A stretch of DNA of 64,000 nt, taken from the NCBI GenBank assembly GCA_021513695.1, contig CP084166.1, positions 256,001 to 320,000 on the forward strand, read 5' to 3'. The position numbers and the translations under genes are program-made. Each line of letters begins with the position of its first letter. Within the stretch, counting starts at the first letter, position 1. Positions 1,520 to 63,684 of this stretch are shown in pieces. The DNA is from Candidatus Heimdallarchaeum aukensis (lineage in GTDB: Archaea; Asgardarchaeota; Heimdallarchaeia; Heimdallarchaeales; Heimdallarchaeaceae). Below the pieces are notes generated by a model. It did not search any database and was not told the origin of the DNA. It worked only from the letters and a program-made list of their open reading frames with translations.

Positions 1520-1779
1520 ATATCATAAGTAGAAATATTGGAAATTTCTTAATTATTTCTTTTCTAAATATATTACTTTTTCAAACATATTTGTAAGTGG
1601 TAATAAAACAAAAAGATTACTCTCTTCAGGTAAATTGTCGATAGAAGTGTAGAGTATAAAAGGCGAGTCTTCAGATTCTCTAATCATAATCTTAAAGAAA
1701 GGATTCAGAGAAACAATTTTTTTAATGTCTTCAATAGATATGGTCATGATTTACTTTTTTACGTAAAGTTTTTCACACT

Positions 1780-1990
1780 CTGTCTTGCAAGAGAGAAAAC
1801 TAAAGGAAGTTTAATCTCTTGAACTCAACCAAGCCATACAATGCCATGAAGGGGTTGAGACAGACATCATACACGAATCGTGGGAATCATAAAGAAGAAA
1901 AGAACTAAAAACTCTTTTCTTCACTCCACGAGAGACAAAAAAGAAAGAATTACTCCTATAATAGAGAAGGAGTTAAGTTCTTTTTTGTCT
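1780..1990 (-). ncRNA. candidate TnpB guide RNA (omegaRNA/reRNA) and right-end region of the IS200/IS605-type element
   Basis: GC-rich, non-coding block immediately 3' of the tnpB stop and continuous with it on the minus strand. In IS200/IS605 elements the omegaRNA overlaps the tnpB 3' end and extends into the right end. No fold was computed. Confidence 0.35.
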
Positions 1991-3443
1991 ACTGGGGCTG
2001 CAACCAATGGCTGAGCCCTCGGCAAACAGTGAAATGGGAAGAACTGAACCTTTGACCAGTGAGGTAATCAGTGATAGTTGTTCCTCGAGGACGAAAAAGA
2101 GCACCAAGGAACTTACGAGCGATATTCATTGCTCCTGTGAGGTCAGAGTGGAAAGTGTAATTGCAAGAGGGGCAATGGACTAAACCTCTAACAGGACGGA
2201 CAACTTTCCTTCCACAACGAGTACAGTGAGAGGATGTCCCTCTTTCCTCTACGGTTAATATTCGATGAGGGTCAAAACCTCTTAATATCAATGCTCGACG
2301 GAGAAGAGTAAGAACTAGAGAAAAGTTCCACTGATGAAGTTTCCTGCGAAACTTACGCGCACTGTTCCCTTTTCCTTTATCTTTTCTCACATTTTTGGGG
2401 TAACCTACGACGACGAAAAGGTCATACCTTCGAGCATAGGTCTCTATCGTCTGCACAACCTCACTTATAAATTGGTGAATATAGGACAGTTTAACGTTTC
2501 TATATCTTCTTCGGAGAAGACTAAGAAAACGATAAACTTGGTGTTTTTTACCCGACTGGTCGTTTAAAGCTGCTTTCCTCTGAAGACGGGAAAGTTTGAG
2601 TTTATATCTATGATTGATTTTATTCCATTGTTTGGTATACCAGAATTTTATTTCTTCACTTGTTAATTTCTTTTTAGGGGTTAGTAACACTCCTGCAGCA
2701 GGAATGTTTATCCCTAGATCTATTCCCAGCACAGCTGGAGGAAGAGAAGAAGAACTTTTTTTTTTAGGAGGATAAAAAGAAGGAGGAGGAAGAACTCTTA
2801 GTTGGAAATACACCCACCACTCATGTGTAGAACGTTTATATCTTAGTTCTAAACTTTTTATTCGTCCTTTCTTTAATTCCTTCTGGTGGAAAGTGCTCAT
2901 CTCTAAAGGCAACCATAACTTCTGATGATATGGGGTATTTCTTTTCCACGTATCTAACGAGTCTCTTATCCCCACCCACCAACGAGCGAGAGTGTTATTC
3001 TTCTCTTTAGGTAAATGGACGAGAACGAACCTCTTTGCATTAATTAGTTGTCTTCTTGCTCTCTTTATTGGAGGACGAGTATTATTAGGTCTATACCCTT
3101 GTTCATATAATTGTACGGCTATATCTCTACACTCTTGAAATTCATTGTGGGAACAATAAGGGAACATTTTCTTCAGATCGTGAGGGACATTCTTTCTTCT
3201 CTCTTCTTCTTTAACTTTTGAAGTAGTTAGCGTCAACTCATCTAGTTTTCCTCTATGCACTCTTATTTTCCCTTTTTTAGTTTTAGTACATATTTTTCTT
3301 CTGTTGTGGTGTATAATTCTCACATACTTTTCTATTATCCTCGTATCTCTTCCCGTTATTCTCCTTAACCTTTCCTTCTTCCTCGTCGTCAATACCTCCT
3401 TCTTTATTCTCACTTTCAAGGTTTTGACGACGTCCTTCACCAT
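1989..3443 (-). CDS. tnpB: TnpB (IS200/IS605 OrfB family, RNA-guided nuclease-like protein)
   Basis: 484 aa. RuvC-I-like LGIDLGINIPAAG. C-terminal zinc finger CTRCGRK...HCPSCNYTFHSDLTGAMNIARK with the RuvC-III-like D. N-terminus KTLKVRIKK...RKKERL resembles the OrfB N-terminal domain. By eye, the expected RuvC-II glutamate position (FVVVGYPKNV) appears to be a glycine. Gene is markedly GC-richer and more Arg-rich than its neighbours. Confidence 0.8.
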   Translation of the reverse strand: MVKDVVKTLKVRIKKEVLTTRKKERLRRITGRDTRIIEKYVRIIHHNRRKICTKTKKGKIRVHRGKLDELTLTTSKVKEEERRKNVPHDLKKMFPYCSHNEFQECRDIAVQLYEQGYRPNNTRPPIKRARRQLINAKRFVLVHLPKEKNNTLARWWVGIRDSLDTWKRNTPYHQKLWLPLEMSTFHQKELKKGRIKSLELRYKRSTHEWWVYFQLRVLPPPSFYPPKKKSSSSLPPAVLGIDLGINIPAAGVLLTPKKKLTSEEIKFWYTKQWNKINHRYKLKLSRLQRKAALNDQSGKKHQVYRFLSLLRRRYRNVKLSYIHQFISEVVQTIETYARRYDLFVVVGYPKNVRKDKGKGNSARKFRRKLHQWNFSLVLTLLRRALILRGFDPHRILTVEERGTSSHCTRCGRKVVRPVRGLVHCPSCNYTFHSDLTGAMNIARKFLGALFRPRGTTITDYLTGQRFSSSHFTVCRGLSHWLQPQ

Positions 3444-3581
3444 CTTTCTCTTTTCTCCTTCTTTCCTCTTTTTTTTGTTTCTTCTTCTCTTTTTTATTCT
3501 ACTTTTTTCCCTATAAAAACCCCTCTCCTTCCTCTCCTCTCCTTTCTTTTTTCTCTCTACATTTTCCTCAATAATTGTAAA

Positions 3582-4082
3582 TTACGTAAAAAATAGACGC
3601 ATGCTAGAAGTTAATTTCTTTAGAGATTCAAGAGGTATAGCTGAAAGATTATTTAGAATTGTAAACTCTAAATTCATTTTTGTTAATATTTGACTAAAAG
3701 CAGTTATCCTCTTCCTAGCATTAGACAGATGATCTCGTATGGTTGAAGGGCTATTTTGAGTAAACTTTGCTATTTCTTCTGATTTGAAATCTAAAATATC
3801 GTGAAGATAAAAACAAAGAAATTGTTTGTCAGATAAAACGGAAGAAACAGGATTAATATCAGAAAAATAACCAAGGTTTACTAATTTAGAAACAGTTTCT
3901 AAAAAATCTAATTCTTGAACTTCTTCTTTAATACTATCTTTCCTTTTAAAAGAAAAAAGAATAACTAAGGAAGCTCTTCTAATTTCCATGTTAATGAAGA
4001 GTTTTAAATGTTTAATACTTTCAGGAATTTTGGGTAAAAATTCTTTATGATCTTCATTTTTTACTAGAATCGAAAATTTCAT
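3582..4082 (-). CDS. hypothetical protein with a C-terminal HTH resembling sigma-70 region 4 / LuxR type
   Basis: 166 aa. FLCFYLHDILDFKSEEIAKFTQNSPSTIRDHLSNARKRI resembles a region-4-type HTH. Weak. Confidence 0.3.
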   Translation of the reverse strand: MKFSILVKNEDHKEFLPKIPESIKHLKLFINMEIRRASLVILFSFKRKDSIKEEVQELDFLETVSKLVNLGYFSDINPVSSVLSDKQFLCFYLHDILDFKSEEIAKFTQNSPSTIRDHLSNARKRITAFSQILTKMNLEFTILNNLSAIPLESLKKLTSSMRLFFT

Positions 4083-4857: not shown

Positions 4858-5595
4858 TTGAGTAAAATGATATTAAGTCAAGTTGAAAACATCTTACAAT
4901 ATGAGCAACCAGATGAAATTTCTCCTGCTTTACCAAGAAATCATTATATTTTTATTGAAAAACTTATCAAATTCCTATCAAATTCAATCAACTATCCTTC
5001 ATTGTGTGAAACAAGAAGAGTTTTTTTCTCAAATCTTCTAGTAATTACTGCATTAAATAACGAAAGTAAGTATTTAACAAAGAATTTTCTTACCTCTGCT
5101 TTTTTAGCTTTATTACGTAATGTTTCAGGGCATATAGACGCTAAATCTCTCCAAGATTTGATAAACCAAATTTCAGGTACATTTATAGGAGTATCAAAAG
5201 GAAAGGCTTTTTCGTTATCAAGCGTAAATAAAATAACAAATGAATTAATAAATCTAGGTATAATCAAAAAGTCAACTGTAGATTTTTTTACTTATGTTGA
5301 AAAAGAGGCATTAAAGTTGGCAAAAAAAACTTGTTCTCATTTTGAAGAAATTAGAAATATGTCAAAAAGTGTTTCGATAAAGATCTCAAGTTTAGTAAAG
5401 AAAAGAATTGTTCCAAGGATGAAAGTTAAACAATCATCAACAGTCTTAGTTCTATCTATCTTATTTAATTATTTACCAAGAAAAGGATATTATAGAGATA
5501 ATGTGTTCAAATTTGTTAGTGAAAAACAAAAAGTGGATTTTCAATTATTAAAGAAAAGAGTGTATAGATTTAGATCAAAATTTAATATTTCGTAG
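4858..5595 (+). CDS. hypothetical protein
   Basis: 245-aa ORF. No recognisable motifs. Confidence 0.3.
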   Translation: MSKMILSQVENILQYEQPDEISPALPRNHYIFIEKLIKFLSNSINYPSLCETRRVFFSNLLVITALNNESKYLTKNFLTSAFLALLRNVSGHIDAKSLQDLINQISGTFIGVSKGKAFSLSSVNKITNELINLGIIKKSTVDFFTYVEKEALKLAKKTCSHFEEIRNMSKSVSIKISSLVKKRIVPRMKVKQSSTVLVLSILFNYLPRKGYYRDNVFKFVSEKQKVDFQLLKKRVYRFRSKFNIS

Positions 5596-5678
5596 CTTTT
5601 TAGTAACTCAAGTTTGCTTTCTTTTCTTCTCTAAGATTAAATACTCAAAACTCTATTATTTATTAACTCTGAAAAAGA

Positions 5679-6830
5679 GGAGAGTGTGAGTATAGTGTAA
5701 ATGTATTTTGCAGATATGGGTTTACACTACACTCTCCATACTAGTAGATTTTTTTTCATATTAAAATATTTTTTGTTTATCTCACGACTGTTTACTCTAT
5801 CCACGTTGGTAACAAATAAATAGAAAGTGGGTTACGAGGGTAAATGATGTATTATGAACAAACCCAAACGTAACCTAGAGAGACTAAGAAAGATTGTGGT
5901 TAAAAAAGCTTTGGAAGGAGAGAAGATAAAAGAGGTAGCTCACAGGTTTATGGTGAGTAGGAAGTTTGTTTACAAGTGGTTGAAGAGGTTCAGAGAGAAC
6001 CCTGAAGGAGAATGGTGGAAGAATAGATCATCTAGACCTAAAACTATACACAGGAAAGTGGATGAGGAGTTAAGAGAGAAGATAAGGGAGTTAAGAGTAA
6101 AGCAAGGAATGAACGTGGAGAAGATAGTTTATCTGTTGAAGAAAGAAGGAAGAGCATTATCGCGAAACACAGTAGTTAAAGTAATAGGAGAGTTAGGTCT
6201 TCCTCTGTGGAGTAATAGAAAAAAGAGAAACAGAACTCAATACAAGAGTTTTGAACGCTCTAGCCCTAACGAACTCTGGCAGATAGATGTGAAAGGACCA
6301 TTCTGGATAGAAGAACAAGGACAACACCTTTATCTCATAACCTTGATAGACGACCACTCACGATTCTGTCTGGGAGCTAAACTCCACCCTTTTGCACCGA
6401 AAAAAGAGCAGATAATAAGTTTGTTAGAAGGAGCAATAGAAAAATATGGACACCCCGAGTCTATCCTCACGGACAATGGAGCACTCTTCTACTCCGTTAG
6501 AGGAGGAACAAGTACCTTCTCCCGTTGGTGTCAAACAGAAGGAATAAAACACATCAGATCTAGAGTTTTTCACCCCGAAACATGCGGAAAAGTAGAAAGA
6601 CTACATGGAACCATCATCCGTGAGATGAAAAGACTAGGACTAACCTACTGTAACTCCGACCTCTCCTTCTACCGCTCTTACTACAATTTTAGCCGTCCTC
6701 ACCAGTCTCTTAACCTCCTTACCCCTGGAGAAAAATTTATGAATCACCCCTACGTTTCTCTAGTGCCCAAAAGTGTAACCCAGGTCTATTGAGTGAACAT
6801 GTTTATCTCACGACCTTTAAAATATTTAAA
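5679..6830 (+). mobile_element. IS481-like insertion sequence (approximate extent)
   Basis: Transposase gene flanked by the 14-bp direct repeat GTTTATCTCACGAC at 5775..5788 and 6801..6814. A 17-bp-stem imperfect hairpin at 5679..5737 lies upstream. Clean terminal inverted repeats could not be identified by eye. Confidence 0.45.
5854..6792 (+). CDS. IS481-like DDE transposase/integrase (rve core with N-terminal HTH)
   Basis: 312 aa. N-terminal HTH (KEVAHRFMVSRKFVYKWLKRF). DDE core: WQIDVKGPF (D), LITLIDDHSRF (D), ILTDNGALF, HPETCGKVERLHGT (E). Codon usage GC-richer than the host. Confidence 0.8.
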   Translation: MNKPKRNLERLRKIVVKKALEGEKIKEVAHRFMVSRKFVYKWLKRFRENPEGEWWKNRSSRPKTIHRKVDEELREKIRELRVKQGMNVEKIVYLLKKEGRALSRNTVVKVIGELGLPLWSNRKKRNRTQYKSFERSSPNELWQIDVKGPFWIEEQGQHLYLITLIDDHSRFCLGAKLHPFAPKKEQIISLLEGAIEKYGHPESILTDNGALFYSVRGGTSTFSRWCQTEGIKHIRSRVFHPETCGKVERLHGTIIREMKRLGLTYCNSDLSFYRSYYNFSRPHQSLNLLTPGEKFMNHPYVSLVPKSVTQVY

Positions 6831-6947: not shown

Positions 6948-7349
6948 ATGAATTTCTATAATATTATAGTGATGATAGTGTCTAGTCAAAATCAACTAAT
7001 AAGTACAAGTTTGGAACAAGTACACAATAATAATTTTTTTGAAATATTTGGGGAACTAAGTGGTTTTATTCACAAAGAAATTTCTATTTCAAAGGAAGAT
7101 CTAGATAATCTTTTTTGTAAGGTAATGAGCATCTCTCAAACAACATCCTTGAACTTGATGCCCACTTTCTATTCTGCTTTGTTATTTGTATCTTCAATTT
7201 TGATTCATGAGTTAAAAGAAGAAAAAGCTGAAAAGCTATTAGATTTTATTATAGAAAAGTATAATTTGGACATTGATAAATTTAGCAATGATATATTGTT
7301 TTTGCGTGAATTAACAGGTTTAAAAGCTAAAATACAATTATTTGAGTAA
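6948..7349 (+). CDS. hypothetical protein
   Basis: 133-aa ORF. No motifs. Confidence 0.25.
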   Translation: MNFYNIIVMIVSSQNQLISTSLEQVHNNNFFEIFGELSGFIHKEISISKEDLDNLFCKVMSISQTTSLNLMPTFYSALLFVSSILIHELKEEKAEKLLDFIIEKYNLDIDKFSNDILFLRELTGLKAKIQLFE

Positions 7350-11907: not shown

Positions 11908-12358
11908 TAAGTAAAAAAAAATTTCTACATCAAAACAAAAAAAACAAAATTCATTGTTAATTTTTTCTCTTTTCGCAATGAAAATATTAAGTAAAAATTT
12001 TTTGTTCTTTAGAAGTCTATATTAATAATCTCAACAGAAAAAAACAGACAAAAATTTCTCACTTAAAAAAGTAAAAATGGAAAATATGATATTATTTGGC
12101 TTGGAAAATAGCAAATAGAAAATAACAACTCAAAAATTCTACTTAGACAGGCCCATTCTACTGATTGTTGACCACTATATAAATGCCCGTAAGACCACAA
12201 TATGCTTAATTTTGAGAATATAAGTGTTACAGCACTTAATATTAACTTATTTTGTTATTTCACGTTAAAAGCGATAATTGCAATATTACTGCAATGTGTA
12301 TAGTTATTTTTAATACAAATTACTCTTTAGTTTACTTGCAGATATGGGTGAAATGTAA

Positions 12359-13690
12359 ATGAGTATAAGTGTAAATGTAAGTGAAGCCTTTGGCAAAGTA
12401 ATCCAACCCACGTGGCTCACTGAAGACGAAGAAGATTTTGAAGCGGTGAGCCACAATTTCCAATCACCAGAAACTTATTATTCTTCTGTTTTATTGAGTG
12501 AACCTTTGGGATCATACATTAGTACATATGATGCCCAAAAAATATTATCAAAGGGATTAAGAAAAAATTCTTGGATAAAGGCTTATTATACAAATAAAGA
12601 ATTATTGAGAGAAAAATATATTTTAGATTTTGTAGATTTAATTGTAGCATCAATAGATGAAAATTTCAACTCATCAATTATTGAAGATGCAGTTTATTTG
12701 TTTAAGCTTAACCTTCCAAACTTTCTAGCTTCTTTTCAAGAAAACTATTTCACAAGTAACTTAGTAGCAATGTATTTCCTTGCATTGTTAGATCATAAAT
12801 TACAGCAAGTTGGAGGAAAATTAACAGCAAAAGACATCGAAATAATTTATTCTCTACCTAAAATTACGCCAAATGCTTTTTCTTTTTATAATATCAAAAA
12901 AATTCAAAATGACCTTTATTCGAGAGGAATATTAAAGAGAAAAAGGAGAACAGACTTTTATGAGCCATTGAGGGCGAGAATCAAGGATATATTAGGTTTA
13001 CTAGTAAAAAATTTTCCTGAATTAAATAAAAAGTTAGATGATTTGGAGCAAATTGTCTTTGATTTAATTAATATGCGTAAAGTACCAGGAACTAATTACA
13101 AAGATGCAGCAGTAATAATGATAATGAGTGTTGCAACTAATCTTTTTGAACTAAGGTATAGAAATAATTTCTGGTCACTTCTAAGTAAAGAATATGCATT
13201 TGAAAAAGAAAAAATGTTAAAATCTGTATATAGATTTAGAAGTAGGTTAAAGGAAGTAGAATTAAATAAACTAATTTTGAAATCCTACGCTCCAAAAAAA
13301 GAACAAGAAAAAGAAGAAAAGAAAGAAAAAACAATTTCTACTTTCGAAATAAAAAAAGCTATATACTTGTTTAGCGATAAAATAATGGATAAATTCTCAA
13401 GATTAGAGAAGGATCTACTAATAGTCGAACAGCAAGCCTATAGATTAATTGATAAAAATATTCATGCAAATTTGGATGTAGATAAATACACACTTCCTGT
13501 TCTTCTATTTCAAAGTCTTATCCCGAAATTAAACATCGCTGAATATGAGAAAGAGAGACTACTAGAATTTCTTAGCAAATTTATGAAAAAAAATGAACAG
13601 ATACTAAATCGTCTGAAGAAAAGAATAGAGTTAGAAGAAATTTCAAATAAGAAAAAAGAAAAAATGATTAAGGTGGGGGAGTTTGAGTAA
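12359..13690 (+). CDS. hypothetical protein
   Basis: 443-aa ORF, helical, no motifs. Its start region overlaps a recurring sequence motif (see findings). Confidence 0.35.
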   Translation: MSISVNVSEAFGKVIQPTWLTEDEEDFEAVSHNFQSPETYYSSVLLSEPLGSYISTYDAQKILSKGLRKNSWIKAYYTNKELLREKYILDFVDLIVASIDENFNSSIIEDAVYLFKLNLPNFLASFQENYFTSNLVAMYFLALLDHKLQQVGGKLTAKDIEIIYSLPKITPNAFSFYNIKKIQNDLYSRGILKRKRRTDFYEPLRARIKDILGLLVKNFPELNKKLDDLEQIVFDLINMRKVPGTNYKDAAVIMIMSVATNLFELRYRNNFWSLLSKEYAFEKEKMLKSVYRFRSRLKEVELNKLILKSYAPKKEQEKEEKKEKTISTFEIKKAIYLFSDKIMDKFSRLEKDLLIVEQQAYRLIDKNIHANLDVDKYTLPVLLFQSLIPKLNIAEYEKERLLEFLSKFMKKNEQILNRLKKRIELEEISNKKKEKMIKVGEFE

Positions 13691-31473: not shown

Positions 31474-34400
31474 ATGACGTCATCTGTCATGTCAACAACT
31501 GTCCTAAAATCATTATTGTTAATTCTAGTTCTTGCTCCAACAATAGTAATGATAAATAATAATGAAAATAATTTATTTAACCTACAAAATGAAGAAAATA
31601 GTAAGAATGAGATTTATTCATTAAACAACAGTAATGAGAATTTTATTGACATATCGAATAAAAAAAATAATGATAATATTCTAGAAAACGACGTAAGAGC
31701 TAGTAATAAGGATAGAATACTTTTATCTTCTCTTCCAGATAGCGCTAATTGGGTAGAAAAAAATGAGTCATTTACTGGTAGATTTTATCAATCATTAAGT
31801 GATTTAGATGAAGATAAAATCCCAGAGCTTATAACTCTTTCTGATACTAATGGGCAAATTCAAGATATTGGAGAACCTGGTTATACAAAATTTTTGGAAT
31901 ATAACGAAACAACAGGAACTTTTTCAAATGAACTATTGTCTATTAGTACAGCGGGCCCTACAATTTATTATCCTGTTGAAGCTTATGCTGATAATGCTGT
32001 ATATTTGCTCGAAAAGACTTTTTCAGCAGATAATTCTGATCATATTTTTGTTTGGAAAAAATGGAATGGAACTGATATTATCAACGTTTCTTCAAATATC
32101 TATATTAAAAATGATGGTTTATATGATTATGACAGTTATGATTTTGATTTAGATGGAAATGTAGATTTAGTTTGTAATTGGGGTTATTATTCAGGTGTAT
32201 GGACAAGATTAGAGTTAGAGAATGGGCTTTTTTCTTCAACTGATTATTCATTTTATAACGGGGGCAGATCTATTTTTGTAGAAGATTTGGATAACGATGG
32301 TAATCCAAATGTAGCTGTACTATATGCTGTTGATAAAATAAATATTTATAATTATAATCCGAGTATAAATGATTTCCAATTTCAACAACAAATTACTGGT
32401 ATTAGTTCATTAAAAGTAATGTATCCTTGGGATTATGACCATAATGGCTATACTGATATTATTGTTGTTTCTCATGAGACTGGAGTTGTTATTTATTCAT
32501 ATGAATGGGATAGTTCTTCTTCTTCTTATGTTCAAAAACTATCATATACCATTCCTGAAGCGACAGATAGTCAATGGACTGGTGTTCCTAGGTATTGTGA
32601 TCTTCTTGGAGATGGAGAAATTACAATGGTTTTTGATATTGTCCGTAATTCACGTTCTGAAATAGGTTTTATCACTTATGAAAATAATAACTTTGCTTTT
32701 AATTCTATTTATAATCATACAGATAGTTCGAAAATTTATTTTACATCTGCTCAAATTGATAATGATCCAGAAAGAGAAATTCTAGTAAATTATGAAAAGA
32801 ATGTAGATGAATTCTATACGAAAATATTAGATTTGGAAGCGTTTAATGAGGGTCGGTATTTTGAAACTTTTGACTCTGATGTTTTTCTTTCTAATCCAAA
32901 TATGAAATATTCTTGGAGCAGGAGTAAAGATAATGTAGTCGTATCTAATGGATCTTTAAAAATTTTAGCTGATGAAACAAATGATGATTATGCAAAACTA
33001 CAACTTTTTTCTGGAACTAAATCAATACAAATCAGAGCTAGAGTAACTTTAAATGGTGACAAATTCAACTATCCTGAAATAATAATTAAAAATGACAATA
33101 ATGAAATAGTAGCCAATTTGACATTTAGTCAAATAGATGGATGGCAAACACCACAGTTAAGCTATTTAAGTGATTACAGAGGACCAACAATAAAAGGCGT
33201 TTGGTATGATTTAATGATCAACTTTGGTTTTAATTCTCTTACATTTTATACAAAGAAGCCTTATCAAGATTATTGGCGCTATATTGCCAGATTTAATATT
33301 AATGGAAATTTAAACGAATTAATTTTTTATCAACGCAATAATGCAGAAATAGAAATGGATTCTATTGACATTTTTTATAGTTATGACAGTGATAATGATG
33401 GGTTAAGTGATGATAGCGAAACTCTAATCTATCAAACTGATCCTCTAGATCCTGATACTGATGACGATGCTTATACAGATGGAGATGAAATAGAAACAGG
33501 AACAGACCCACTTGATCCTTTAAGTTATCCCAAATCTTACTCCTCAATTTTTTCAGAAAATTTTGAAACAGGAATATTAGATGAAAATAATTGGAGTTTG
33601 TATTCTTCCAATAATGTTGGAGAATGGACTATTGTTAAATATCAAGGAAACTATTGGGTACAGCATCTTTATTCAGGTAGTGTGATAGGACATACTGATC
33701 CTAACATACTTGTTTCATCTCCTCTAAATTTTGGTGACAATTTTACTATTTCATATGTAGTTAGACCTCTCACTTATCAATACGATGAGGTTGGAATTTT
33801 CTTTCTCTGTCCTAATGGTACAGGTTTCAGACTAGGAACTTTTAATGTATATCATGATTTTATAAGAATAGGTGCTTCTAGCTATTATGATTTTGCTTTC
33901 ACAGCTGATTTAGATAAGACTTATTATATGAAAGTTACTTATGTAGATGATACAGTTACCGTTTTTTGTAATGACTCTCAAATTGCACAGGTAAATAATA
34001 TAGACCTCCCATCTGAAGGATCATTAGGATTAAGGAGTAGAGGATATTATGGTCAAGCTTCTCATGCTCTTTATGACAATATTACAATACATAGTACAGC
34101 TTTGTTAAATGAGACCTTTGATTTTGATATCTTTGACACTTATTCAAATTGGATAAGAGATACTACTTCTTTTACTGTTGATACAACCAATAGTTGGTTA
34201 CATAAAGGTACAACAGGTAGTTATAATCATATTGCAAAATATAATAAAACAATACAATTTCCATTCACTATAAATGTAAGAGGAAGATTGGTAAGTGGAG
34301 GATATGATTATACATTTCCTGGATTATATCTCTGTTATCCAAATGGTTCGTCAATGTCAATTGTTTTTAATGGAGGAGGTACAGGAGGAGACTATTGGAC

Positions 34401-37400
34401 ATTTTGGGGTCGCAGAGATTCGGACTATGGTCCTCAAGCAGAAAATGTATGGTGGAATATTAAAGTTCTTTTGGATAATGGAACTCAATTTCTCTACTCC
34501 AAAAGTGACACTGATAGTAGTTGGATTTTAATTGCTAAAACAAATCTTTTATTTGAAAGTAATCATATTTATGTAGGTTTTAGTAGTCCTTGGGACGCTG
34601 TTTTTGACATAGATTATATTGAGATAATTTCGAGGAGTACAAATCCAATTGATACTGATTCTGATGGATTACTAGATGAGGATGAGATAAATATTTACGG
34701 TACTAACCCTTCTAATTCTGATACTGATTCTGATGGTATGCCTGACGGTTGGGAGGTTACTAACAGTTTGGACCCCTTAACTGATGATTCTTCTTTAGAC
34801 GCTGATTCTGATGGTTTAACTAATTTAGAAGAATACTCTTCTGGTACTGACCCCAATAATAGTGATTCTGATAATGATGGTTTAACTGATGGTTCAGAGG
34901 TTAATACTTACAATACTGACCCCAATGATTCTGATACTGATTCTGATGGTATGCCTGACGGTTGGGAAGTAAACTACAGTTTGGACCCCTTAACTGATGA
35001 TTCTTCTTTAGACGCTGATTCTGACAGTTTAACTAATTTAGAAGAGTATCAAAATAACACTGACCCCAATAATAGTGATTCTGATAATGATGGTTTAACT
35101 GATGGTTCAGAGGTTAATACTTACAATACTGACCCCAATAATTCTGATACTGATTCTGATGGTATGCCTGATGGTTGGGAAGTAAACTACAGTTTGGACC
35201 CCTTAACTGATGATTCTTCTTTAGACCCCGATTCTGACAGTTTAACTAATTTAGAAGAGTATCAAAATAACACTGACCCCAATAATAGTGATTCTGATAA
35301 TGATGATTTAACTGATGGTTCAGAGGTTAATACTTACAATACTGACCCCAATAATTCTGATACTGATTCTGATGGTATGCCTGATGGTTGGGAAGTAAAC
35401 TACAGTTTGGACCCCTTAACTGATGATTCTTCTTTAGACGCTGATTCTGATGGTTTAACTAATTTAGAAGAATACTCTTCTGGTACTAACCCTTCTAATT
35501 CTGATACTGATTCTGATGGTATGCCTGATGGTTGGGAAGTAAACTACAGTTTGGACCCCTTAACTGATGATTCTTCTTTAGACCCCGATTCTGACAGTTT
35601 AACTAATTTAGAAGAGTATCAAAATAACACTGACCCCAATAATAGTGATTCTGATAATGATGATTTAACTGATGGTTCAGAGGTTAATACTTACAATACT
35701 GACCCCAATAATTCTGATACTGATTCTGATGGTATGCCTGATGGTTGGGAAGTAAACTACAGTTTGGACCCCTTAACTGATGATTCTTCTTTAGACGCTG
35801 ATTCTGACAGTTTAACTAATTTAGAAGAATACTCTTCTGGTACTAACCCTTCTAATTCTGATACTGATTCTGATGGTATGCCTGATGGTTGGGAGGTTAC
35901 TAACAGTTTGGACCCCTTAACTGATGATTCTTCTTTAGACGCTGATTCTGATGGTTTAACTAATTTAGAAGAATACTCTTCTGGTACTGACCCCAATAAT
36001 AGTGATTCTGATTCTGATGGTATGCCTGACGGTTGGGAAGTAAACTACAGTTTGGACCCCTTAACTGATGATTCTTCTTTAGACGCTGATTCTGATGGTT
36101 TAACTAATTTAGAAGAGTATCAAAATAACACTGACCCCAATAATAGTGATTCTGATAATGATGGTTTAACTGATGGTTCAGAGGTTAATACTTACAATAC
36201 TGACCCCAATGATTCTGATACTGATTCTGATGGTATGCCTGACGGTTGGGAAGTAAACTACAGTTTGGACCCCTTAACTGATGATTCTTCTTTAGACGCT
36301 GATTCTGACAGTTTAACTAATTTAGAAGAGTATCAAAATAACACTGACCCCAATAATTCTGATTCTGATAATGATGGTTTAACTGATGGTTCAGAGGTTA
36401 ATACTTACGGTACTGACCCTAATAATTCTGATTCTGATAATGATGGTTTAACTGATGGTCAAGAGGTTAATACTTACGGTACTGACCCTAATAATTCTGA
36501 TACTGATGGAGACAGTATGCCTGATGATTGGGAAGCAAATAATAATTTAGATCCTTTAATTGATGATTCTTCTTTTGATGCTGATTCTGACGGTTTAACA
36601 AATTTAGAAGAATACTCTTCTGGTACTGACCCCAATAATAGTGATTCTGATAATGATGGTTTAACTGATGGTTCAGAGGTTAATACTTACTCTACAGATC
36701 CATTAGATTCTGACACCGACTCTGATGGTATGCTTGATGGTTGGGAGGTTACTAACAGTTTGGACCCCTTAACTGATGATTCTTCTTTAGACGCTGATTC
36801 TGACAGTTTAACTAATTTAGAAGAGTATCAAAATAACACTGACCCCAATAATAGTGATTCTGATAATGATGGTTTAACTGATGGTTCAGAGGTTAATACT
36901 TACAATACTGACCCCAATGATTCTGATTCTGATAATGATGGTATGCCTGACGGTTGGGAGGTTACTAACAGTTTGGACCCCTTAACTGATGATTCTTCTT
37001 TAGACGCTGATTCTGATGGTTTAACTAATTTAGAAGAATATTCTTCTGGTACTGGCCCTACTAATTCTGACACTGATTCTGATGGTATGCCTGACGGTTG
37101 GGAGGTTACTAACAGTTTGGACCCCTTAACTGATGATTCTTCTTTAGACACTGATTCTGATGGTTTAACTAATTTAGAAGAATACTCTTCTGGTACTGAC
37201 CCCAATAATAGTGATTCTGATTCTGATGGTATGCCTGACGGTTGGGAGGTTACTAACAGTTTGGACCCCTTAACTGATGATTCTTCTTTAGACGCTGATT
37301 CTGACAGTTTAACTAATTTAGAAGAATACTCTTCTGGTACTGACCCTAATGATTCTGACACTGATTCCGATGGCATACCTGATGGTTCAGAGGTTAATAA

Positions 37401-39414
37401 TTACTCCACTGATCCTTCTAATAGTGACACTGATTTTGATGGTTTAACTGATGGTTCAGAGGTTCTCTATGGTACTGATCCTTCTAATAATGACACCGAT
37501 TCTGATGGTTTAACTGATGGTTCAGAGGTTAATACTTACTCTACTGACCCTTTGGCTTCTGACACTGATTTTGATGGTATACCTGATGGTTGGGAAGTTA
37601 CTAACGGTTTAGACCCGTTATCTGATGATTCTTCTTTCGACCCCGATAATGACGGTTTAACTAATTTAGAAGAATACTCTTCTGGTACTGACCCCAATGA
37701 TTCTGACACTGATTCCGATGGCATACCTGACGGTTGGGAGGTTACTAACAGTTTAGACCCATTATCTGATGATTCTTCTTTCGACCCCGATAATGACGGT
37801 TTAACTAATTTAGAAGAATACTCTTCTGGTACTGACCCTAATGATAGTGACACTGATTTTGATGGTTTAACTGATGGTTCAGAGGTTAATATTTACTCCA
37901 CTGACCCTAATAATAGTGACACCGATTCTGATGATATGCCTGATGGGTGGGAAGTCAGCAACAATTTGAACCCATTGAAAGACGATTCTGCTTGGGATAT
38001 TGATTCTGATGGTTTAACTAATTTAGAAGAATACACTTCTGGTACTGACCCTAATGATTCTGACACTGACTCTGATGGTATGTCTGACGGTTGGGAAGTA
38101 AACTACAGTTTGAATCCGTTATCCGATGATTCCTCTTTGGATGCTGATTCTGATGGTTTAACTAATTTAGAAGAATACTCTTCTGGTACTGACCCTAATG
38201 ATTCTGACACTGATAATGACGGTTTAACAGATTATGAAGAAATAGCGATTTATGGTACAAAACCAAATAAAAACGACACCGATGGAGATGGTGTTCCTGA
38301 TGGTGATGAAATACAAAATGGTTCAAACCCAAACAAACCTTCTTACTTACAGTTTCTGATATTATATTCAATAAAAAGGTATACTTTTGAACTGATATTT
38401 GGAATAATTGCAATAATTGGTATCATTGTAGCTACAATATTCTTAAAGAAAAAGAGAAAAACCCAAAAAATCTTAGCATCAAAAAATAGATCAAGACAAA
38501 GTACAATAAAAAGAGCAAAGAAAAAGAATTTATTGTTATCTTTCAGTGATAATTTGGAGATTATAGAACAGGAATGGAAACAGATTAATGATGAGAAATA
38601 TTCTGATAAAACATTGTTTAATACTGATTATTCTAATAAAATAAAAGAAACTTTTGCTAAATTAATAGAGACTACAATAGAATTTAACTATTACTTTACC
38701 AAAGGGACAAAATATTTGTCAAATGTTGAATGGTTAAATATAAAGAAAAGAATAAACAATTTACTTGACAAATTTAGAGACTTTTTACTACAAGAATTAG
38801 AGAAAGTTGATTTTACTAAAAAATTCTCGATAATAAAAAATGAAATAGAAAAGGTAGTTGTTGAAAATTTGCGAAACTTTGACGAAAAAGAGTTATTAAA
38901 ACCATTTAATATATTAAATACTCTAGCTACTATAAAAAATGAAATAGACAGGACTAAAGAGTTCATCGACGAATTTACTTTTTCTAAATTGACCTCTTAC
39001 TGGGGTAATTTGTCTAATCAAATTACAAATATTATTGTTGAAATAGAAAGACAAAAAGAGGAAACAGAAAGAATTATACAAGAAACAAAGGAAATAATGG
39101 AAAACGAGAAATTGAATCAAGAACGATTAGAAATTCTAAACAAAGTAGTTTCTATCTATACACAAATTTCATTATCTAAACTTTCTTCGTTGCTTAAGTT
39201 ACCTTCGATATCTGCTCTAACTTATTGGTTATCAACTCAAAATTTAGATATTGATTATATAATTGTCGACGATGAAATAATCTTTGAAAAACAAAAAGGA
39301 GAAAAAAATGAAAATGATGTTGATTATGATAACGAAGTAACTAATGCGATAGACTCTCTATTAAAACAATTTGATGAATGGGCAAAAAAGGATGAAGGAA
39401 AAAAAATAGATTAA
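31474..39414 (+). CDS. giant surface adhesin-like protein (2646 aa): signal/anchor, FG-GAP-like propeller repeats, LamG-like jelly-roll domains, about 50 thrombospondin-type-3-like Ca-binding repeats, TM helix, 330-aa cytoplasmic coiled-coil tail
   Basis: N-terminal hydrophobic LLLILVLAPTIVMI. DxDxDG loops DFDLDGNVDLV, DLDNDGNPNVAV, DYDHNGYTDIIVV, DLLGDGEITMVF (FG-GAP-like). Repeating DTDSDGMPDGWEV / DADSDGLTNLEEY / DSDNDGLTDGSEV units match DxDxDGxxDxxE. TM ELIFGIIAIIGIIVATIF followed by KKKRK and a charged helical tail. Confidence 0.75.
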   Translation: MTSSVMSTTVLKSLLLILVLAPTIVMINNNENNLFNLQNEENSKNEIYSLNNSNENFIDISNKKNNDNILENDVRASNKDRILLSSLPDSANWVEKNESFTGRFYQSLSDLDEDKIPELITLSDTNGQIQDIGEPGYTKFLEYNETTGTFSNELLSISTAGPTIYYPVEAYADNAVYLLEKTFSADNSDHIFVWKKWNGTDIINVSSNIYIKNDGLYDYDSYDFDLDGNVDLVCNWGYYSGVWTRLELENGLFSSTDYSFYNGGRSIFVEDLDNDGNPNVAVLYAVDKINIYNYNPSINDFQFQQQITGISSLKVMYPWDYDHNGYTDIIVVSHETGVVIYSYEWDSSSSSYVQKLSYTIPEATDSQWTGVPRYCDLLGDGEITMVFDIVRNSRSEIGFITYENNNFAFNSIYNHTDSSKIYFTSAQIDNDPEREILVNYEKNVDEFYTKILDLEAFNEGRYFETFDSDVFLSNPNMKYSWSRSKDNVVVSNGSLKILADETNDDYAKLQLFSGTKSIQIRARVTLNGDKFNYPEIIIKNDNNEIVANLTFSQIDGWQTPQLSYLSDYRGPTIKGVWYDLMINFGFNSLTFYTKKPYQDYWRYIARFNINGNLNELIFYQRNNAEIEMDSIDIFYSYDSDNDGLSDDSETLIYQTDPLDPDTDDDAYTDGDEIETGTDPLDPLSYPKSYSSIFSENFETGILDENNWSLYSSNNVGEWTIVKYQGNYWVQHLYSGSVIGHTDPNILVSSPLNFGDNFTISYVVRPLTYQYDEVGIFFLCPNGTGFRLGTFNVYHDFIRIGASSYYDFAFTADLDKTYYMKVTYVDDTVTVFCNDSQIAQVNNIDLPSEGSLGLRSRGYYGQASHALYDNITIHSTALLNETFDFDIFDTYSNWIRDTTSFTVDTTNSWLHKGTTGSYNHIAKYNKTIQFPFTINVRGRLVSGGYDYTFPGLYLCYPNGSSMSIVFNGGGTGGDYWTFWGRRDSDYGPQAENVWWNIKVLLDNGTQFLYSKSDTDSSWILIAKTNLLFESNHIYVGFSSPWDAVFDIDYIEIISRSTNPIDTDSDGLLDEDEINIYGTNPSNSDTDSDGMPDGWEVTNSLDPLTDDSSLDADSDGLTNLEEYSSGTDPNNSDSDNDGLTDGSEVNTYNTDPNDSDTDSDGMPDGWEVNYSLDPLTDDSSLDADSDSLTNLEEYQNNTDPNNSDSDNDGLTDGSEVNTYNTDPNNSDTDSDGMPDGWEVNYSLDPLTDDSSLDPDSDSLTNLEEYQNNTDPNNSDSDNDDLTDGSEVNTYNTDPNNSDTDSDGMPDGWEVNYSLDPLTDDSSLDADSDGLTNLEEYSSGTNPSNSDTDSDGMPDGWEVNYSLDPLTDDSSLDPDSDSLTNLEEYQNNTDPNNSDSDNDDLTDGSEVNTYNTDPNNSDTDSDGMPDGWEVNYSLDPLTDDSSLDADSDSLTNLEEYSSGTNPSNSDTDSDGMPDGWEVTNSLDPLTDDSSLDADSDGLTNLEEYSSGTDPNNSDSDSDGMPDGWEVNYSLDPLTDDSSLDADSDGLTNLEEYQNNTDPNNSDSDNDGLTDGSEVNTYNTDPNDSDTDSDGMPDGWEVNYSLDPLTDDSSLDADSDSLTNLEEYQNNTDPNNSDSDNDGLTDGSEVNTYGTDPNNSDSDNDGLTDGQEVNTYGTDPNNSDTDGDSMPDDWEANNNLDPLIDDSSFDADSDGLTNLEEYSSGTDPNNSDSDNDGLTDGSEVNTYSTDPLDSDTDSDGMLDGWEVTNSLDPLTDDSSLDADSDSLTNLEEYQNNTDPNNSDSDNDGLTDGSEVNTYNTDPNDSDSDNDGMPDGWEVTNSLDPLTDDSSLDADSDGLTNLEEYSSGTGPTNSDTDSDGMPDGWEVTNSLDPLTDDSSLDTDSDGLTNLEEYSSGTDPNNSDSDSDGMPDGWEVTNSLDPLTDDSSLDADSDSLTNLEEYSSGTDPNDSDTDSDGIPDGSEVNNYSTDPSNSDTDFDGLTDGSEVLYGTDPSNNDTDSDGLTDGSEVNTYSTDPLASDTDFDGIPDGWEVTNGLDPLSDDSSFDPDNDGLTNLEEYSSGTDPNDSDTDSDGIPDGWEVTNSLDPLSDDSSFDPDNDGLTNLEEYSSGTDPNDSDTDFDGLTDGSEVNIYSTDPNNSDTDSDDMPDGWEVSNNLNPLKDDSAWDIDSDGLTNLEEYTSGTDPNDSDTDSDGMSDGWEVNYSLNPLSDDSSLDADSDGLTNLEEYSSGTDPNDSDTDNDGLTDYEEIAIYGTKPNKNDTDGDGVPDGDEIQNGSNPNKPSYLQFLILYSIKRYTFELIFGIIAIIGIIVATIFLKKKRKTQKILASKNRSRQSTIKRAKKKNLLLSFSDNLEIIEQEWKQINDEKYSDKTLFNTDYSNKIKETFAKLIETTIEFNYYFTKGTKYLSNVEWLNIKKRINNLLDKFRDFLLQELEKVDFTKKFSIIKNEIEKVVVENLRNFDEKELLKPFNILNTLATIKNEIDRTKEFIDEFTFSKLTSYWGNLSNQITNIIVEIERQKEETERIIQETKEIMENEKLNQERLEILNKVVSIYTQISLSKLSSLLKLPSISALTYWLSTQNLDIDYIIVDDEIIFEKQKGEKNENDVDYDNEVTNAIDSLLKQFDEWAKKDEGKKID
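34640..38330 (+). repeat. intragenic near-identical tandem nucleotide repeat array (213-nt and 144-nt unit variants) encoding the TSP3-like repeats
   Basis: Unit starts at 34933, 35146 and 35359 are exactly 213 nt apart with long perfectly identical stretches. The shorter 144-nt variants lack the DSDNDGLTDGSEV half-unit. The array extends about 3.7 kb. Confidence 0.85.
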
Positions 39415-44156: not shown

Positions 44157-45587
44157 TTACAAATTTGTTGCTTTCTTCTGATAAAGAAAATCACTCAAGA
44201 ACCCTTCATGTGGTGCTGCTAAGTCCATCAAGAAAGAACTTTCATTTACAAAAACTTTATGTATTGATGGTTCACGTAGATACTCTCTTGCCTTTTCTTT
44301 CTTATCTGTTATTACGCTTAAAGCAAGAGTATTTTGTACTAACTCATGAGGTAAATACTCGTTAACTCTTGTTATTGTACCAAATGGAAATGGATACTCA
44401 TCTGTCCTCATTTTATGGTCCTCTTTTAGTTCTAGCAATATAGGAAGTAGATAACCAAATTCTCCGTTAAGATAGAGAAAATCATCATATCCTCTATATT
44501 CAGATGTTAGATCTTTTGTATTTTTCATTCGTTGTCTGATATAACTAGCCAAATTTTTTGCTCCTTCTTTCGTCATTGCAGGGAGTTGGGCTTCTTCTTC
44601 AAGAGGATGATAAGGTTCAATCTTTGCTAGTTTTTTAGCAAGCTTATGCTTAAATTCATCATATCCTTCATCTGAATTATATACTATGCTTGATGCATTA
44701 ATGCATCCTCTTCCTCCATCATAAATTATACTTCTATAAGCTATATCAAGAGCTTGACGCATTCTGTATGTACTCATCTTTTCAGCGTCTATTAATATTT
44801 TAGATCTACCAGGTCCATAAGTTTTGATTTGATTATTTTTTCCATACATCTGAATTGTCCAATCTGAACCAAATACTATCCCTAAATCGCTCTTTGTTAT
44901 TAAAGTATCTACTTCTGCATGTGTTGTTACAAAGTGGAAAAGAGCTTCTGAAGGTATTCCTGCTTCCCATAGTGCCTTGCATATTCTATAACTAGTAAAA
45001 GGTTCACTGCTTGAAGAGCGTATTATTGCTGGAATTTTGAATAATGGGATTAAAGCTCCAAATAAAGCTACTGCTGGATGATTCCCTGGAAGAGCTACTC
45101 CAACGTTTTTTCCTTTAGGACTAAAACCAAACTTTGTTGTCCCTCTTACCCCTACTAGCTTATCATATATTTCTATTTCACTTGTAGGACTGTTAGCTAT
45201 TAGAAAACGTTCTAACTGTTCTTTCTTGAAAAAAGCAGGTATCATTTCTACAGCATTTCTTACTACAGAAATTGGCATTCCAGTAGATAAAGTTATCAGT
45301 TTAATCCAATTATTGAGAGTAGTGCTTTGTCCTCCTATCTCCATTTCTTTAGAAAAAATCTTTCCTGCTTCAACATAGATATCAATAAGATCATCTATTG
45401 GGATTTTTGATAGTTTTCGGAAACCAATCCCTCTATTTATTGGAATAGCCATTTGTATATGTAATTCTGGGGAAAAGCTTATGTTAGTAAGAAATCTTCC
45501 GTTTATTGCTTTTAATGGTACCTTTGTTGAACTTAAATATTCTGTACCATTTCTTAATGTTGGTAAATCACTTAGTAAAGAACTCAT
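44157..45587 (-). CDS. aldehyde dehydrogenase superfamily protein (ALDH or acyl-CoA reductase-like)
   Basis: 476 aa. GGRGCINASSIV resembles the ALDH catalytic Cys loop (GQxCxAxxR). TYGPGRSKILID resembles the ELGGKSP region. Length typical of the family. Confidence 0.5.
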   Translation of the reverse strand: MSSLLSDLPTLRNGTEYLSSTKVPLKAINGRFLTNISFSPELHIQMAIPINRGIGFRKLSKIPIDDLIDIYVEAGKIFSKEMEIGGQSTTLNNWIKLITLSTGMPISVVRNAVEMIPAFFKKEQLERFLIANSPTSEIEIYDKLVGVRGTTKFGFSPKGKNVGVALPGNHPAVALFGALIPLFKIPAIIRSSSSEPFTSYRICKALWEAGIPSEALFHFVTTHAEVDTLITKSDLGIVFGSDWTIQMYGKNNQIKTYGPGRSKILIDAEKMSTYRMRQALDIAYRSIIYDGGRGCINASSIVYNSDEGYDEFKHKLAKKLAKIEPYHPLEEEAQLPAMTKEGAKNLASYIRQRMKNTKDLTSEYRGYDDFLYLNGEFGYLLPILLELKEDHKMRTDEYPFPFGTITRVNEYLPHELVQNTLALSVITDKKEKAREYLREPSIHKVFVNESSFLMDLAAPHEGFLSDFLYQKKATNL

Positions 45588-45832
45588 TTTATTTTCAATA
45601 ATTTATCACAAAAATCATTTATAAAGAAGGAAATTTTTTTGTCTACTTTTTTCTTTTAGACTTTTAAGACAGGTAGTCATAAAATTAATACACACATTTT
45701 AGCACGAGAAATCTCTTGCTCCCATATCTGCAGGAGAAGAATTTTCTTCTCCTATATTATATACAGATTAATCTCTTACTACACTAAGACTAACAAAGAT
45801 TTTTTAAATGTTCAAAAAAAGCAAAAGTTGAT

Positions 45833-56991: not shown

Positions 56992-57232
56992 TTTTTCACC
57001 AATTATTTATACCATATTTCATTTATAAAGAAGGAAATTTTTTAGAAATCACTGCAATTTTTCTGCAATTTTTTCCATAATAAATTAATTAAATAAAAGT
57101 AAACAATACTCACGAAAAGGAGAATAAAACTCTCTATTGGGTCAAACATCTTTGAGTTTTATTCTTTTTTCTTTCTTTTCTTATCAAAATATGTATCAAA
57201 CAGACATATATAAACCCAAAGAAAATAAATTA

Positions 57233-62844: not shown

Positions 62845-63684
62845 ATGGAAAATGAAGAAACTCTAATAAATGAGCTGAAAAGTGGTTTCGGAACTATAGG
62901 GGTTACTTCTCTTGTAGCTTTTATTTTTAATCTTGCTTTTCTAATTTTTCAGCTAAGCTATTTAAGTAATTATTCACATAATAATTTATCATATAGTAAC
63001 TATTATTTAATATATATTGGCGGTAGTAGTATTTCTTCATTGTTGTTTACTCTGATTTACTTTAGTTTTTTGTACTTAAGCAGAAAGATAGATGAAATAG
63101 AAAAAAGCAAAGAAAACACTATATTTAGAATATCAACAACTATTGCAATTTTGATAATATTCTTTAATATTGGATTCTTTTTAGCTCAATTCTTAGTTGT
63201 AAATGCTGATCAATATTCTGATATTTTTAGTATATCTTACATTATTTTGCAGATATGCTTCATTTTCGTTTATATCTTCTTTGCTCTTTCAATAAGTAAA
63301 ATGAATAGTAAAATGGAAGTTGGAGTAATTATTTGGCCAATTGTAATATATGCAACTATTAACTCAATCGGAGCAATATTTAGGCTAATAATTCAAACTC
63401 TTATTATACTACAACTCTCTTCTTCTGCTTTATTCACCAGCATACTATATTCTTTCTTTAAAAGTATTGATCTAGTTGTTGAATTAATATTTATTATAAC
63501 CATGTTCTTTGTAGCAAACAATGCTCAAATTTCTTTATTACATCAAGTACCACGATATACTTCTTATGCATATTCAGGACCTGTATATAAATCCAAACAA
63601 TCAACTAATTTTTGTCCTTTTTGTGGAACAGAAAATTCTCCTGATTCAAAATTTTGTATAAACTGTGGAAAAAGGATAGATTAG
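62845..63684 (+). CDS. polytopic membrane protein with a C-terminal zinc-ribbon
   Basis: 279 aa, about 7 hydrophobic helices. C-terminal CPFCGTENSPDSKFCINCGKRID zinc ribbon (CxxC...CxxC). Confidence 0.45.
   Translation: MENEETLINELKSGFGTIGVTSLVAFIFNLAFLIFQLSYLSNYSHNNLSYSNYYLIYIGGSSISSLLFTLIYFSFLYLSRKIDEIEKSKENTIFRISTTIAILIIFFNIGFFLAQFLVVNADQYSDIFSISYIILQICFIFVYIFFALSISKMNSKMEVGVIIWPIVIYATINSIGAIFRLIIQTLIILQLSSSALFTSILYSFFKSIDLVVELIFIITMFFVANNAQISLLHQVPRYTSYAYSGPVYKSKQSTNFCPFCGTENSPDSKFCINCGKRID

Follow-up and report, generated by a model that had tools for sequence, protein, structure and literature searches.

The 12-nt sequence TGCAGATATGGG, which occurs three times in the 64-kb stretch of the Heimdallarchaeum aukensis genome analyzed here (hereinafter, the window), most likely is a lineage-restricted cis-regulatory element that is new in itself but of a familiar general kind. 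When the DNA-level and RNA-level possibilities are taken together, it appears probable that this element is shared by several units and read by one factor; of the two, we favor the DNA level, tentatively assigning the motif as an operator or extended initiator that is located at the predicted transcription start and has one reader. Under this scheme, a few units in one conserved gene neighborhood of Heimdallarchaeaceae would carry the 12-mer where their transcription starts or at most some tens of nucleotides further on, and a single sequence-specific trans-acting factor would read it and co-regulate three units. A protein bound over position +1, where archaeal repressor sites are usually found, would control the recruitment or escape of RNA polymerase. 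Both H. aukensis (complete, 3.08 Mb) and its sister species H. endolithica (CP084167.1) are represented by the circularised genomes of Wu et al. 2022; that study covers transposase families, CRISPR systems and aloposons, and reports no short intergenic motif (PMC8813620). Across the region analyzed, the two species are 82-83 % identical.

The recurrence on which the earlier note was built is confirmed: the window contains three exact matches to TGCAGATATGGG, two on the forward strand (copies 1 and 2) and one on the reverse strand (copy 3; Table 1), and no one-mismatch copies, with 0.07 matches expected at up to one mismatch. The 12-mer includes six G/C, not the five previously counted, in a window of about 28 % GC. 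With up to three mismatches allowed, the number of matches is near chance (39 observed vs 27 expected), and the truncated copy previously proposed at about 63250 is a chance 10/12 match (63248-63258, two mismatches over 12 nt) inside the ORF 62845-63684. The real copies, 3 of 3, are located in non-coding DNA, the 8.3 % of the window outside long ORFs. A search of the flanks for a longer common element revealed none, the similarity between copies being confined to 12-14 nt plus one coding-derived block. This block (hereinafter, block B; TGAGTATA-GTGTAAATGTA) is indeed shared by sites 1 and 2 in a different order relative to the motif, as had been noted, with 19 of 20 positions identical and one gap (5687-5705 vs 12360-12379). 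Because block B at 12359 corresponds to codons 1-7 (MSISVNV) of a gene for a 443-aa protein, the copy at 5688 is a pseudo-copy of the start of a coding sequence. No tRNA genes and no Rfam families at gathering score were detected in the window.

Copy 2 resides in the promoter of an operon that includes the gene for the 443-aa protein (12359-13690; K9W45_01080; 87 % identical to its H. endolithica ortholog) and the gene for a giant surface protein. Archaeal TATA boxes are centred near -26, so that G12338 is the predicted start for copy 2. The GGG of this copy overlaps an SD-like GGGTGA at 12346-12351. Promoters in the window generally show a pyrimidine tract followed by TTTATAAA and then by ATG 23-30 nt further on, which implies that genes here have very short leaders or none. 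Two direct TGCAAT boxes precede the TATA box of the operon; pairs of such boxes occur twice in the window (0 expected), and the boxes are kept in the orthologous promoters of H. endolithica (L122), L160, L124 and L161 and also in L151 (3382, reverse strand). From position 12276 into the coding sequence, the copy-2 block is 100 % identical between the two Heimdallarchaeum species, with the exception of a 6-nt coding indel, and the intergenic DNA upstream of the block has diverged. Were the motif to pair with UAUA..UGU of block B, the SD and the start codon at copy 2 would be enclosed; such pairing is predicted for H. aukensis as well as for L160 but is weak, with a shifted register, and we do not rely on it.

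Copy 3, located between a TPR gene (45833-47860) and an aldehyde dehydrogenase (ALDH) gene, lies about 95 nt upstream of the ALDH gene's own TATA box and appears to be part of a small conserved unit with a predicted start position. The motif in this unit is enclosed by two hairpins, and on the forward strand the 3' arm of hairpin 1 is the pyrimidine tract of the TPR-gene promoter. The adjacent box TATATTATATAC could serve the TPR gene on the forward strand and is situated 20 nt upstream of copy 3 on the reverse strand. The order of hairpin 1, motif and hairpin 2 is kept in the MAG contigs L149, L150 and L157, where ALDH is 90 % identical, and the stems are retained there with altered loops (hairpin 2 of L149, for example, has the same stem and a different loop). 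In the more divergent L151, hairpin 1 reads GGAGGG...CCCTCC, with two A-U to G-C double changes, and hairpin 2 reads AGCAAG...CTTGCT. More distant ALDH orthologs (L153-L156) show a different synteny and lack the element, and a profile scan of metagenomes with the ALDH alignment added nothing beyond a duplicate of L149.

Copy 1 is positioned differently, downstream of the gene for a 245-aa paralog (4858-5595) of the 443-aa protein and in the loop of a hairpin the 5' arm of which contains the pseudo-copy of block B (5688-5705). The region 5' of this copy resembles the TPR-gene promoter next to copy 3 (45742-45799; 69 % over 58 nt), and the pyrimidine tract and TATA-like box within it would start a transcript of about 90 nt near 5667. 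Oligo-T acts in archaeal transcription termination, and a T8 run follows the hairpin. The segment from about 5625 to the insertion point of a neighboring IS element is about 98 % identical to H. endolithica (background 82 %); the conserved block begins at TTTTCTTCTC-TAAGATTAAATAC and takes in both the hairpin and the T8 run. The copy-1 unit (about 5667-5756) is a candidate small RNA with a length of about 90 nt. A TATA box is missing at 20-23 nt 5' of the motif, which would lie about 43 nt into the putative transcript. In H. aukensis, a position past a TATA or TATA-like box that would fit a promoter role is seen for copies 2 and 3 (21 and 20 nt, respectively) and not for copy 1. A conserved peptide starting at the ATG of the motif was considered and rejected, given that the ORFs measure 4, 8, 29, 12, 2 and 35 codons across copies and lineages and are unconserved; likewise, a 39-codon ORF at copy 1 would read through the T8 terminator.

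Table 1. Features of the motif-containing loci in the window (positions are those of the window)
Feature	Position	Strand	Remarks
Promoter-like pyrimidine tract and TATA-like box (TTTTCTTCTC TAAGATTAAATAC)	5622..5644	+	Putative function
Hairpin GGAGAGTG[TGAGTA]TAGTGTAAA - loop - TTTACACTACACTCTCC	5679..5737	+	Fold z-scores -4.2 and -3.5
Motif copy 1 (TGCAGATATGGG)	5709..5720	+	In 19-nt apical loop of conserved hairpin; same letters in H. endolithica (L122 4400-4411)
T8 run, likely archaeal terminator of the copy-1 unit	5749..5756	+	Conserved in H. endolithica
Two direct TGCAAT boxes (TGCAATATTACTGCAAT)	12279..12295	+	5' of the TATA box of the 443-aa operon
TATA box TTATTTTTAATA, promoter of the 443-aa operon	12304..12315	+	Conserved in L122, L124, L151-2; TATA-like in L160, L161
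Motif copy 2	12337..12348	+	Begins 21 nt past the TATA box 12304-12315; 5' end of leader of ~21 nt
Start codon and codons 1-7 of the 443-aa gene (block B, MSISVNV)	12359..12381	+	MSVSVNV in L160
Hairpin 2 (AGCAAGAG ATTT CTCGTGCT)	45701..45720	-	Directly 3' of copy 3
Motif copy 3	45721..45732	-	Same orientation as the ALDH gene
Perfect palindrome, hairpin 1 (GGAGAAGAA AA TTCTTCTCC)	45733..45752	-	Between the TATA-like box and copy 3
AT-rich TATA-like box (TATATTATATAC)	45753..45764	.	Putative
Second TGCAAT-class promoter (57053-57069), then candidate small RNA (hairpin 57114-57171 and U-run)	57053..57178	+	

The argument for one reader comes from a second lineage, represented by the JGI contig Ga0366833_1007333, which encodes orthologs of ALDH (L151; 73 % identity) and of the 443-aa protein (P0034, L160; 44 %). 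On this contig, the ortholog of copy 3 is TGCAGACATGGA, located between altered yet self-complementary versions of hairpins 1 and 2, and the ortholog of copy 2 is TGCAGACATGGAA, located 21 nt past a TATA-like box that is preceded by CTGCAAT-N5-TGCAAT. A third copy, AGCAGACATGGA (L151 3311-3322, reverse strand), lies 23 nt past GTTATTTTTATAT, with TGTAAT-N4-CTGCAAC further upstream, and heads a predicted ~90-nt unit with T7 at its end; the H. aukensis ortholog of this unit (57053-57178) has the TGCAAT boxes and the terminator hairpin without the 12-mer. All three copies on the contig, within 21.6 kb, are GCAGACATGGAA, and TGCAGATATGGG is found in 3 of 3 copies in the H. aukensis window, in copies 1 and 2 of H. 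endolithica and in copy 3 of L149, L150 and L157. The two versions differ at two bases, both by transitions (U/C and G/A). Thus, in a comparison of two lineages, the second of which is known from one contig, we observed the pattern expected of a regulon motif, namely sameness within a genome combined with a shift of the consensus between lineages. Because independent drift would not produce such concerted change of all copies, it points to one trans-acting reader. Together with the position of the motif relative to the TATA box and the conservation of orthologous promoters, this co-variation supports the earlier suggestion of a shared regulatory site.

The same architecture, with two TGCAAY boxes, 41-43 nt that include a TATA box, and then the motif, was identified in H. 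endolithica (L122), in L160 and at L151 3311-3322 (reverse strand). At greater distances it is retained in part: L124 (39 % identity) keeps the boxes and the TATA box and lacks the motif, and L161 (30 % protein identity) partly keeps the promoter architecture and has AACAGACAAAAT in the +1 region. A +1 core CAGAYA is conserved over a long range. Matches to the TGYAAY pair elsewhere in the H. endolithica sample have no adjoining TATA box and look coding. No lineage-specific +1 sequence was found to be repeated elsewhere in L124/L153 or in L161, and a profile scan of metagenomes with the 443-aa protein alignment yielded no matches.

The distance between the TATA box and the motif is 21 nt for copy 2 (in H. 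aukensis, H. endolithica and L160), 20 nt for copy 3 (in H. aukensis and L149) and 23 nt for the third L151 copy. This fixed spacing in six instances is explained more simply by a role at the promoter level, and the geometry, the promoter class, the concerted variation, the conservation and the restricted distribution all support the DNA reading, as do the long-range CAGAYA core and the presence of adjacent TFIIB-like genes. Several observations count against it: copy 1 is off the predicted start and in a hairpin loop, copy 3 of L151 has a TATA-like box 32 nt away rather than 20, and the motif lacks the palindromic symmetry of most archaeal operators. Operators of archaeal repressors are known to lie just 3' of the TATA box, over the start, as in the case of the NrpR, Phr, MDR1 and TrmBL1 sites, and are mostly palindromic or composed of repeated half-sites. 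The motif described here is similar to these sites in being short, conserved, alike in orthologs, restricted to few promoters and placed directly past the TATA box over the predicted +1; it differs from them in being asymmetric and in having one copy off the start.

The genes next to copies 1 and 2 encode the 245-aa and 443-aa paralogs, respectively, which belong to a family with 12 representatives and a cyclin/TFIIB-like fold; neither protein has Pfam or PDB sequence matches. There are no other paralog pairs in the window, and there is no paralog near copy 3. The 443-aa protein lacks a Zn ribbon and a B-reader, has no Cys among its N-terminal 60 residues and shows no Pfam TFIIB match. In contrast to TFIIB/TFB and other cyclin-box proteins, the proteins in question form a tiny family without a Zn ribbon or B-reader. 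They are no more than candidates for the reader of the motif, and the lack of the Zn ribbon and of a Pfam TFIIB match counts against them as DNA-binding readers. HTH proteins are also encoded in the neighborhood (PadR-like, 181-1065; ArsR, 1238-1519; and 3582-4082). A more speculative scenario, which we regard as doubtful, is that the neighborhood possesses its own promoter code that would comprise, besides two TGCAAT boxes and a TATA box, a co-evolving element of 11-12 nt at +1, with the dedicated Zn-ribbon-less TFIIB-like paralogs as readers and the copy-1 and copy-3 units as decoys or sensors marked by the same tag. If true, a single gene island would have its own variant of the basal initiation machinery, and this in the archaeal lineage that is closest to eukaryotes.

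Hardly anything is known of how the transcription of individual genes is controlled in Heimdallarchaeia, the archaea closest to eukaryotes, and concerted change between two lineages is the type of signal by which a genuine cis element can be recognized together with its reader. The locus offers an experimental handle in the form of a 12-nt element that is rare, conserved to the letter and located at predicted transcription starts, accompanied by the TGCAAT boxes, two candidate small RNAs and the adjacent genes of the cyclin/TFIIB-fold family.

The principal alternative to a DNA site, possible although less likely in our assessment, is that the 12 nt act in transcripts, where copies 2 and 3 and the motif of the L151 small RNA would form a common leader at the 5' terminus and copy 1 a hairpin-loop sequence, with a sequence-specific RNA-binding protein or a complementary RNA as the reader; under this scenario, small RNAs from the units of copies 1 and 3 would imitate the 5' end of the operon mRNA or compete with it. 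Given that all instances are on the predicted sense strand and several are next to hairpins, an RNA-level reader fits these observations equally well. Copy 1 is exposed in a hairpin loop of 19 nt (the hairpin itself being stable, conserved and succeeded by T8), copy 3 sits between two hairpins the stems of which are kept, with A-U to G-C double changes in L151, while the loops change, and the motif of the small L151 unit is an unpaired 5' end (probability of being unpaired 0.90) followed by a hairpin and a T7 run. The fact that both differences between the lineages are transitions (U/C and G/A) also favors a function in RNA, and the position relative to the TATA box is not strictly fixed (copy 1; copy 3 of L151). 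However, no complementary sequence was detected in the window or in 582 kb of related DNA other than the opposite strand of the motif itself (potential targets within the window are limited to weak G-U-rich matches), the predicted accessibility of the motif is inconsistent (0.30-0.69 in most contexts), and hairpin 1 of copy 3 would be upstream of the predicted start. There is no Rfam family match either, permissive Rfam scans of both regions giving only scores far below threshold, and the fixed TATA spacing remains easier to reconcile with the promoter.

Long-range duplexes between the units are predicted to be significant solely for copy 1 vs copy 2, a signal that is due to the shared coding-derived block. 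Decoys of the CsrB/RsmZ type present GGA in their loops, and there are bacterial sRNAs with a 5' seed. The motif resembles these systems in its location in a hairpin loop (copy 1) and, for copy 3 and the L151 unit, at a predicted unpaired 5' end that precedes a hairpin and a U-tract, and copy 2, in an mRNA leader and overlapping the SD-like GGGTGA, is comparable to leader-borne recognition sequences; unlike the CsrB/RsmZ decoys, each predicted RNA would carry one motif rather than many, and no Rfam family is matched. Upon inspection, readings as C/D-box or H/ACA RNA, BHB intron, ORB/origin, parS or invertase site were discarded for want of the boxes, spacing or neighboring genes that they would require.

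It is improbable that the copies are relics of duplicated promoters and 5' gene ends of the 443-aa/245-aa family that have no shared function at present. Such an origin is suggested by the paralogous genes flanking copies 1 and 2, by the association of both copies with the first seven codons of the 443-aa gene (one set being a pseudo-copy) and by the 69 % similarity over 58 nt between the copy-1 upstream region and the TPR-gene promoter beside copy 3. Nevertheless, the motif is exact in every copy despite the ~17-18 % nucleotide divergence of the species, and in L151/L160 copies 2 and 3 and a third copy share the same two substitutions, whereas neutral relics would drift independently; moreover, copy 3 has no paralog nearby.

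Chance recurrence of a 12-mer in AT-rich DNA can be practically dismissed: in third-order Markov simulations that allowed for the post-hoc choice of any 12-mer, 9 of 200 windows (4.5 %) contained some 12-mer with at least six G/C at least three times, but the confinement of the copies to non-ORF DNA, their conservation at orthologous sites in blocks that far exceed the 82-83 % background, and the existence of a second lineage in which a distinct variant is present three times within 21.6 kb indicate that the recurrence, as the earlier note maintained, is not due to chance.

We also reject, as extremely unlikely, the possibility that the copies are fragments of a small mobile element (MITE or PATE-like), as had been proposed, or ends of the neighboring IS elements. 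The setting is suggestive insofar as copy 1 is flanked by inverted repeats and located only 54 nt from an IS481-like insertion, with a TnpB-type insertion also near. Indeed, MITEs and palindrome-associated elements (IS200/IS605-derived or derived from other IS) are likewise short, intergenic and found near inverted repeats and IS; the motif, in contrast to MITEs, is not multicopy and shows no common flanks, terminal inverted repeats, target duplications or presence/absence polymorphism around its copies. In a sample of 496,818 bp of H. endolithica (24 loci around IS481-like copies, about 15 % of one related genome), there are no exact copies of TGCAGATATGGG and four one-mismatch matches, all of which, on inspection, fall in sequence that looks coding. 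Each of the stems on either side of copies 1 and 3 is found only once in 582 kb, and the likeness between copies ends at 12-14 nt. Every site is occupied at orthologous positions, with copies 1 and 2 in H. endolithica, copy 3 in L149/L150/L157, and variant copies in L151 (copy 3) and L160 (copy 2).

The boundaries of the adjacent insertions are also incompatible with this possibility. The IS481-like element, which encodes an rve transposase, spans 5789-6799, has the inverted repeats TGTTTACTC / TGTTCACTC (TGTT(T/C)ACTC) and is flanked by a 15-bp target duplication (5774-5788 and 6800-6814). In H. endolithica (L122), the site of this element is empty and the hairpin and motif are intact; taken together with the element boundaries, this indicates that the hairpin 5679-5737 is not part of the IS. 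The TnpB-type insertion (1752-3604) is found in H. aukensis only, in the comparison with H. endolithica, and ends in TTTTTTACGTAA. Neither TGTTYACTC nor TTTTTTACGTAA is related to the motif, so that an origin of the motif as an IS481 or TnpB element end, or a relation to TnpB/omega-RNA, was rejected. For annotation, these comparisons remove a false mobile-element call and fix the boundaries of the two IS insertions.

We identified a second recurrent element besides the 12-base motif, namely, paired direct TGCAAT (TGYART) boxes spaced by 4–5 nt. A TATA box lies 8–9 nt downstream of the pair, which is confined to the promoter of the 443-aa gene operon and to the small divergent unit adjoining the 381-aa gene, and is kept even where the protein encoded downstream retains 30 % identity. 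A candidate small RNA is located beside the 381-aa gene; its long hairpin, GGAGAAUAAAACUC...GAGUUUUAUUCU, has a z-score of −3.8, and the blocks ATAAAACTCTC, TCAAACATC and GAGTTTTTAT are common to this candidate and the other lineage (L151). The promoter block of the aldehyde dehydrogenase (ALDH) gene (TTTCCTTCTTTATAAATGA and its flanks, 45584–45639) has an 82 % identical duplicate at 56988–57043, upstream of the 381-aa gene (55846–56991, minus strand). The ALDH and 381-aa genes are direct neighbors in the L151 lineage.

Mobile and putative regulatory features of the window and of related loci
Feature	Location	Strand	Details
TnpB/Cas12f-like ORF-bearing insertion	1752–3604		1853 bp; ORF 1989–3443, minus strand
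IS481-like insertion	5789–6799		rve transposase, 312 aa
Paired TGCAAT boxes	12279–12295; 57053–57069
Paired TGCAAT boxes, 443-aa gene orthologs	L124 3850; L160 766; L161 9875
Paired TGCAAT boxes, ortholog of the small divergent unit	L151 3382	−
Candidate small RNA	57098–57178	+	short 5' single strand, long hairpin, U-run
Ortholog of candidate small RNA	L151 3225–3322	−
Example genes with consensus promoter	4082; 9479; 45587	−
Example genes with consensus promoter	4169; 6972	+

The regions upstream of most genes in the window conform to a consensus promoter in which TTTATAAA comes after a pyrimidine tract and precedes the ATG by 23–30 nt; therefore, most of the mRNAs in the window would be leaderless or almost leaderless. 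The true start of ORF 6948–7349 is probably ATG 6972. The beginning of the 443-aa gene (12376–12381, compared with position 10016 of L122, the orthologous H. endolithica locus) contains a 6-nt indel, AAATGT, which corresponds to the codons Asn-Val, is present in H. aukensis and the L160 lineage but not in H. endolithica, and lengthens the apparent linked block of motif copies 1 and 2. The window (45808–45835) and L149 (2933), the contig with a 90 % identical ALDH, also disagree on where the TPR gene is annotated to start: in the window, a 1-nt length difference, apparently located in an A-run, takes ATG 45808 out of the reading frame, and TTG 45833 becomes the first start codon in frame.

The insertion bearing the TnpB/Cas12f-like ORF (GC content of the ORF, 36 % against a background of 28 %) has the ends TTTTTTACGTAA and TTACGTAAAAAA, is missing in H. 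endolithica and appears to have shortened the HTH gene 3582–4082 (166 aa in the window vs 223 aa in the sister species). The IS481-like element has TGTTYACTC as its inverted repeats and is flanked by a target duplication of 15 bp, TGTTTATCTCACGAC; H. endolithica contains at least 24 related copies. Just within the right end of this element, a Logan contig from the same strain stops. Finally, the ORF 31474–39414 (2646-aa protein) contains extensive tandem repeats (33377–38356; periods of 69, 144 and 213 nt; GC up to 35–38 %) that encode Asp-rich units such as TDPNNSDSDNDGLTD.
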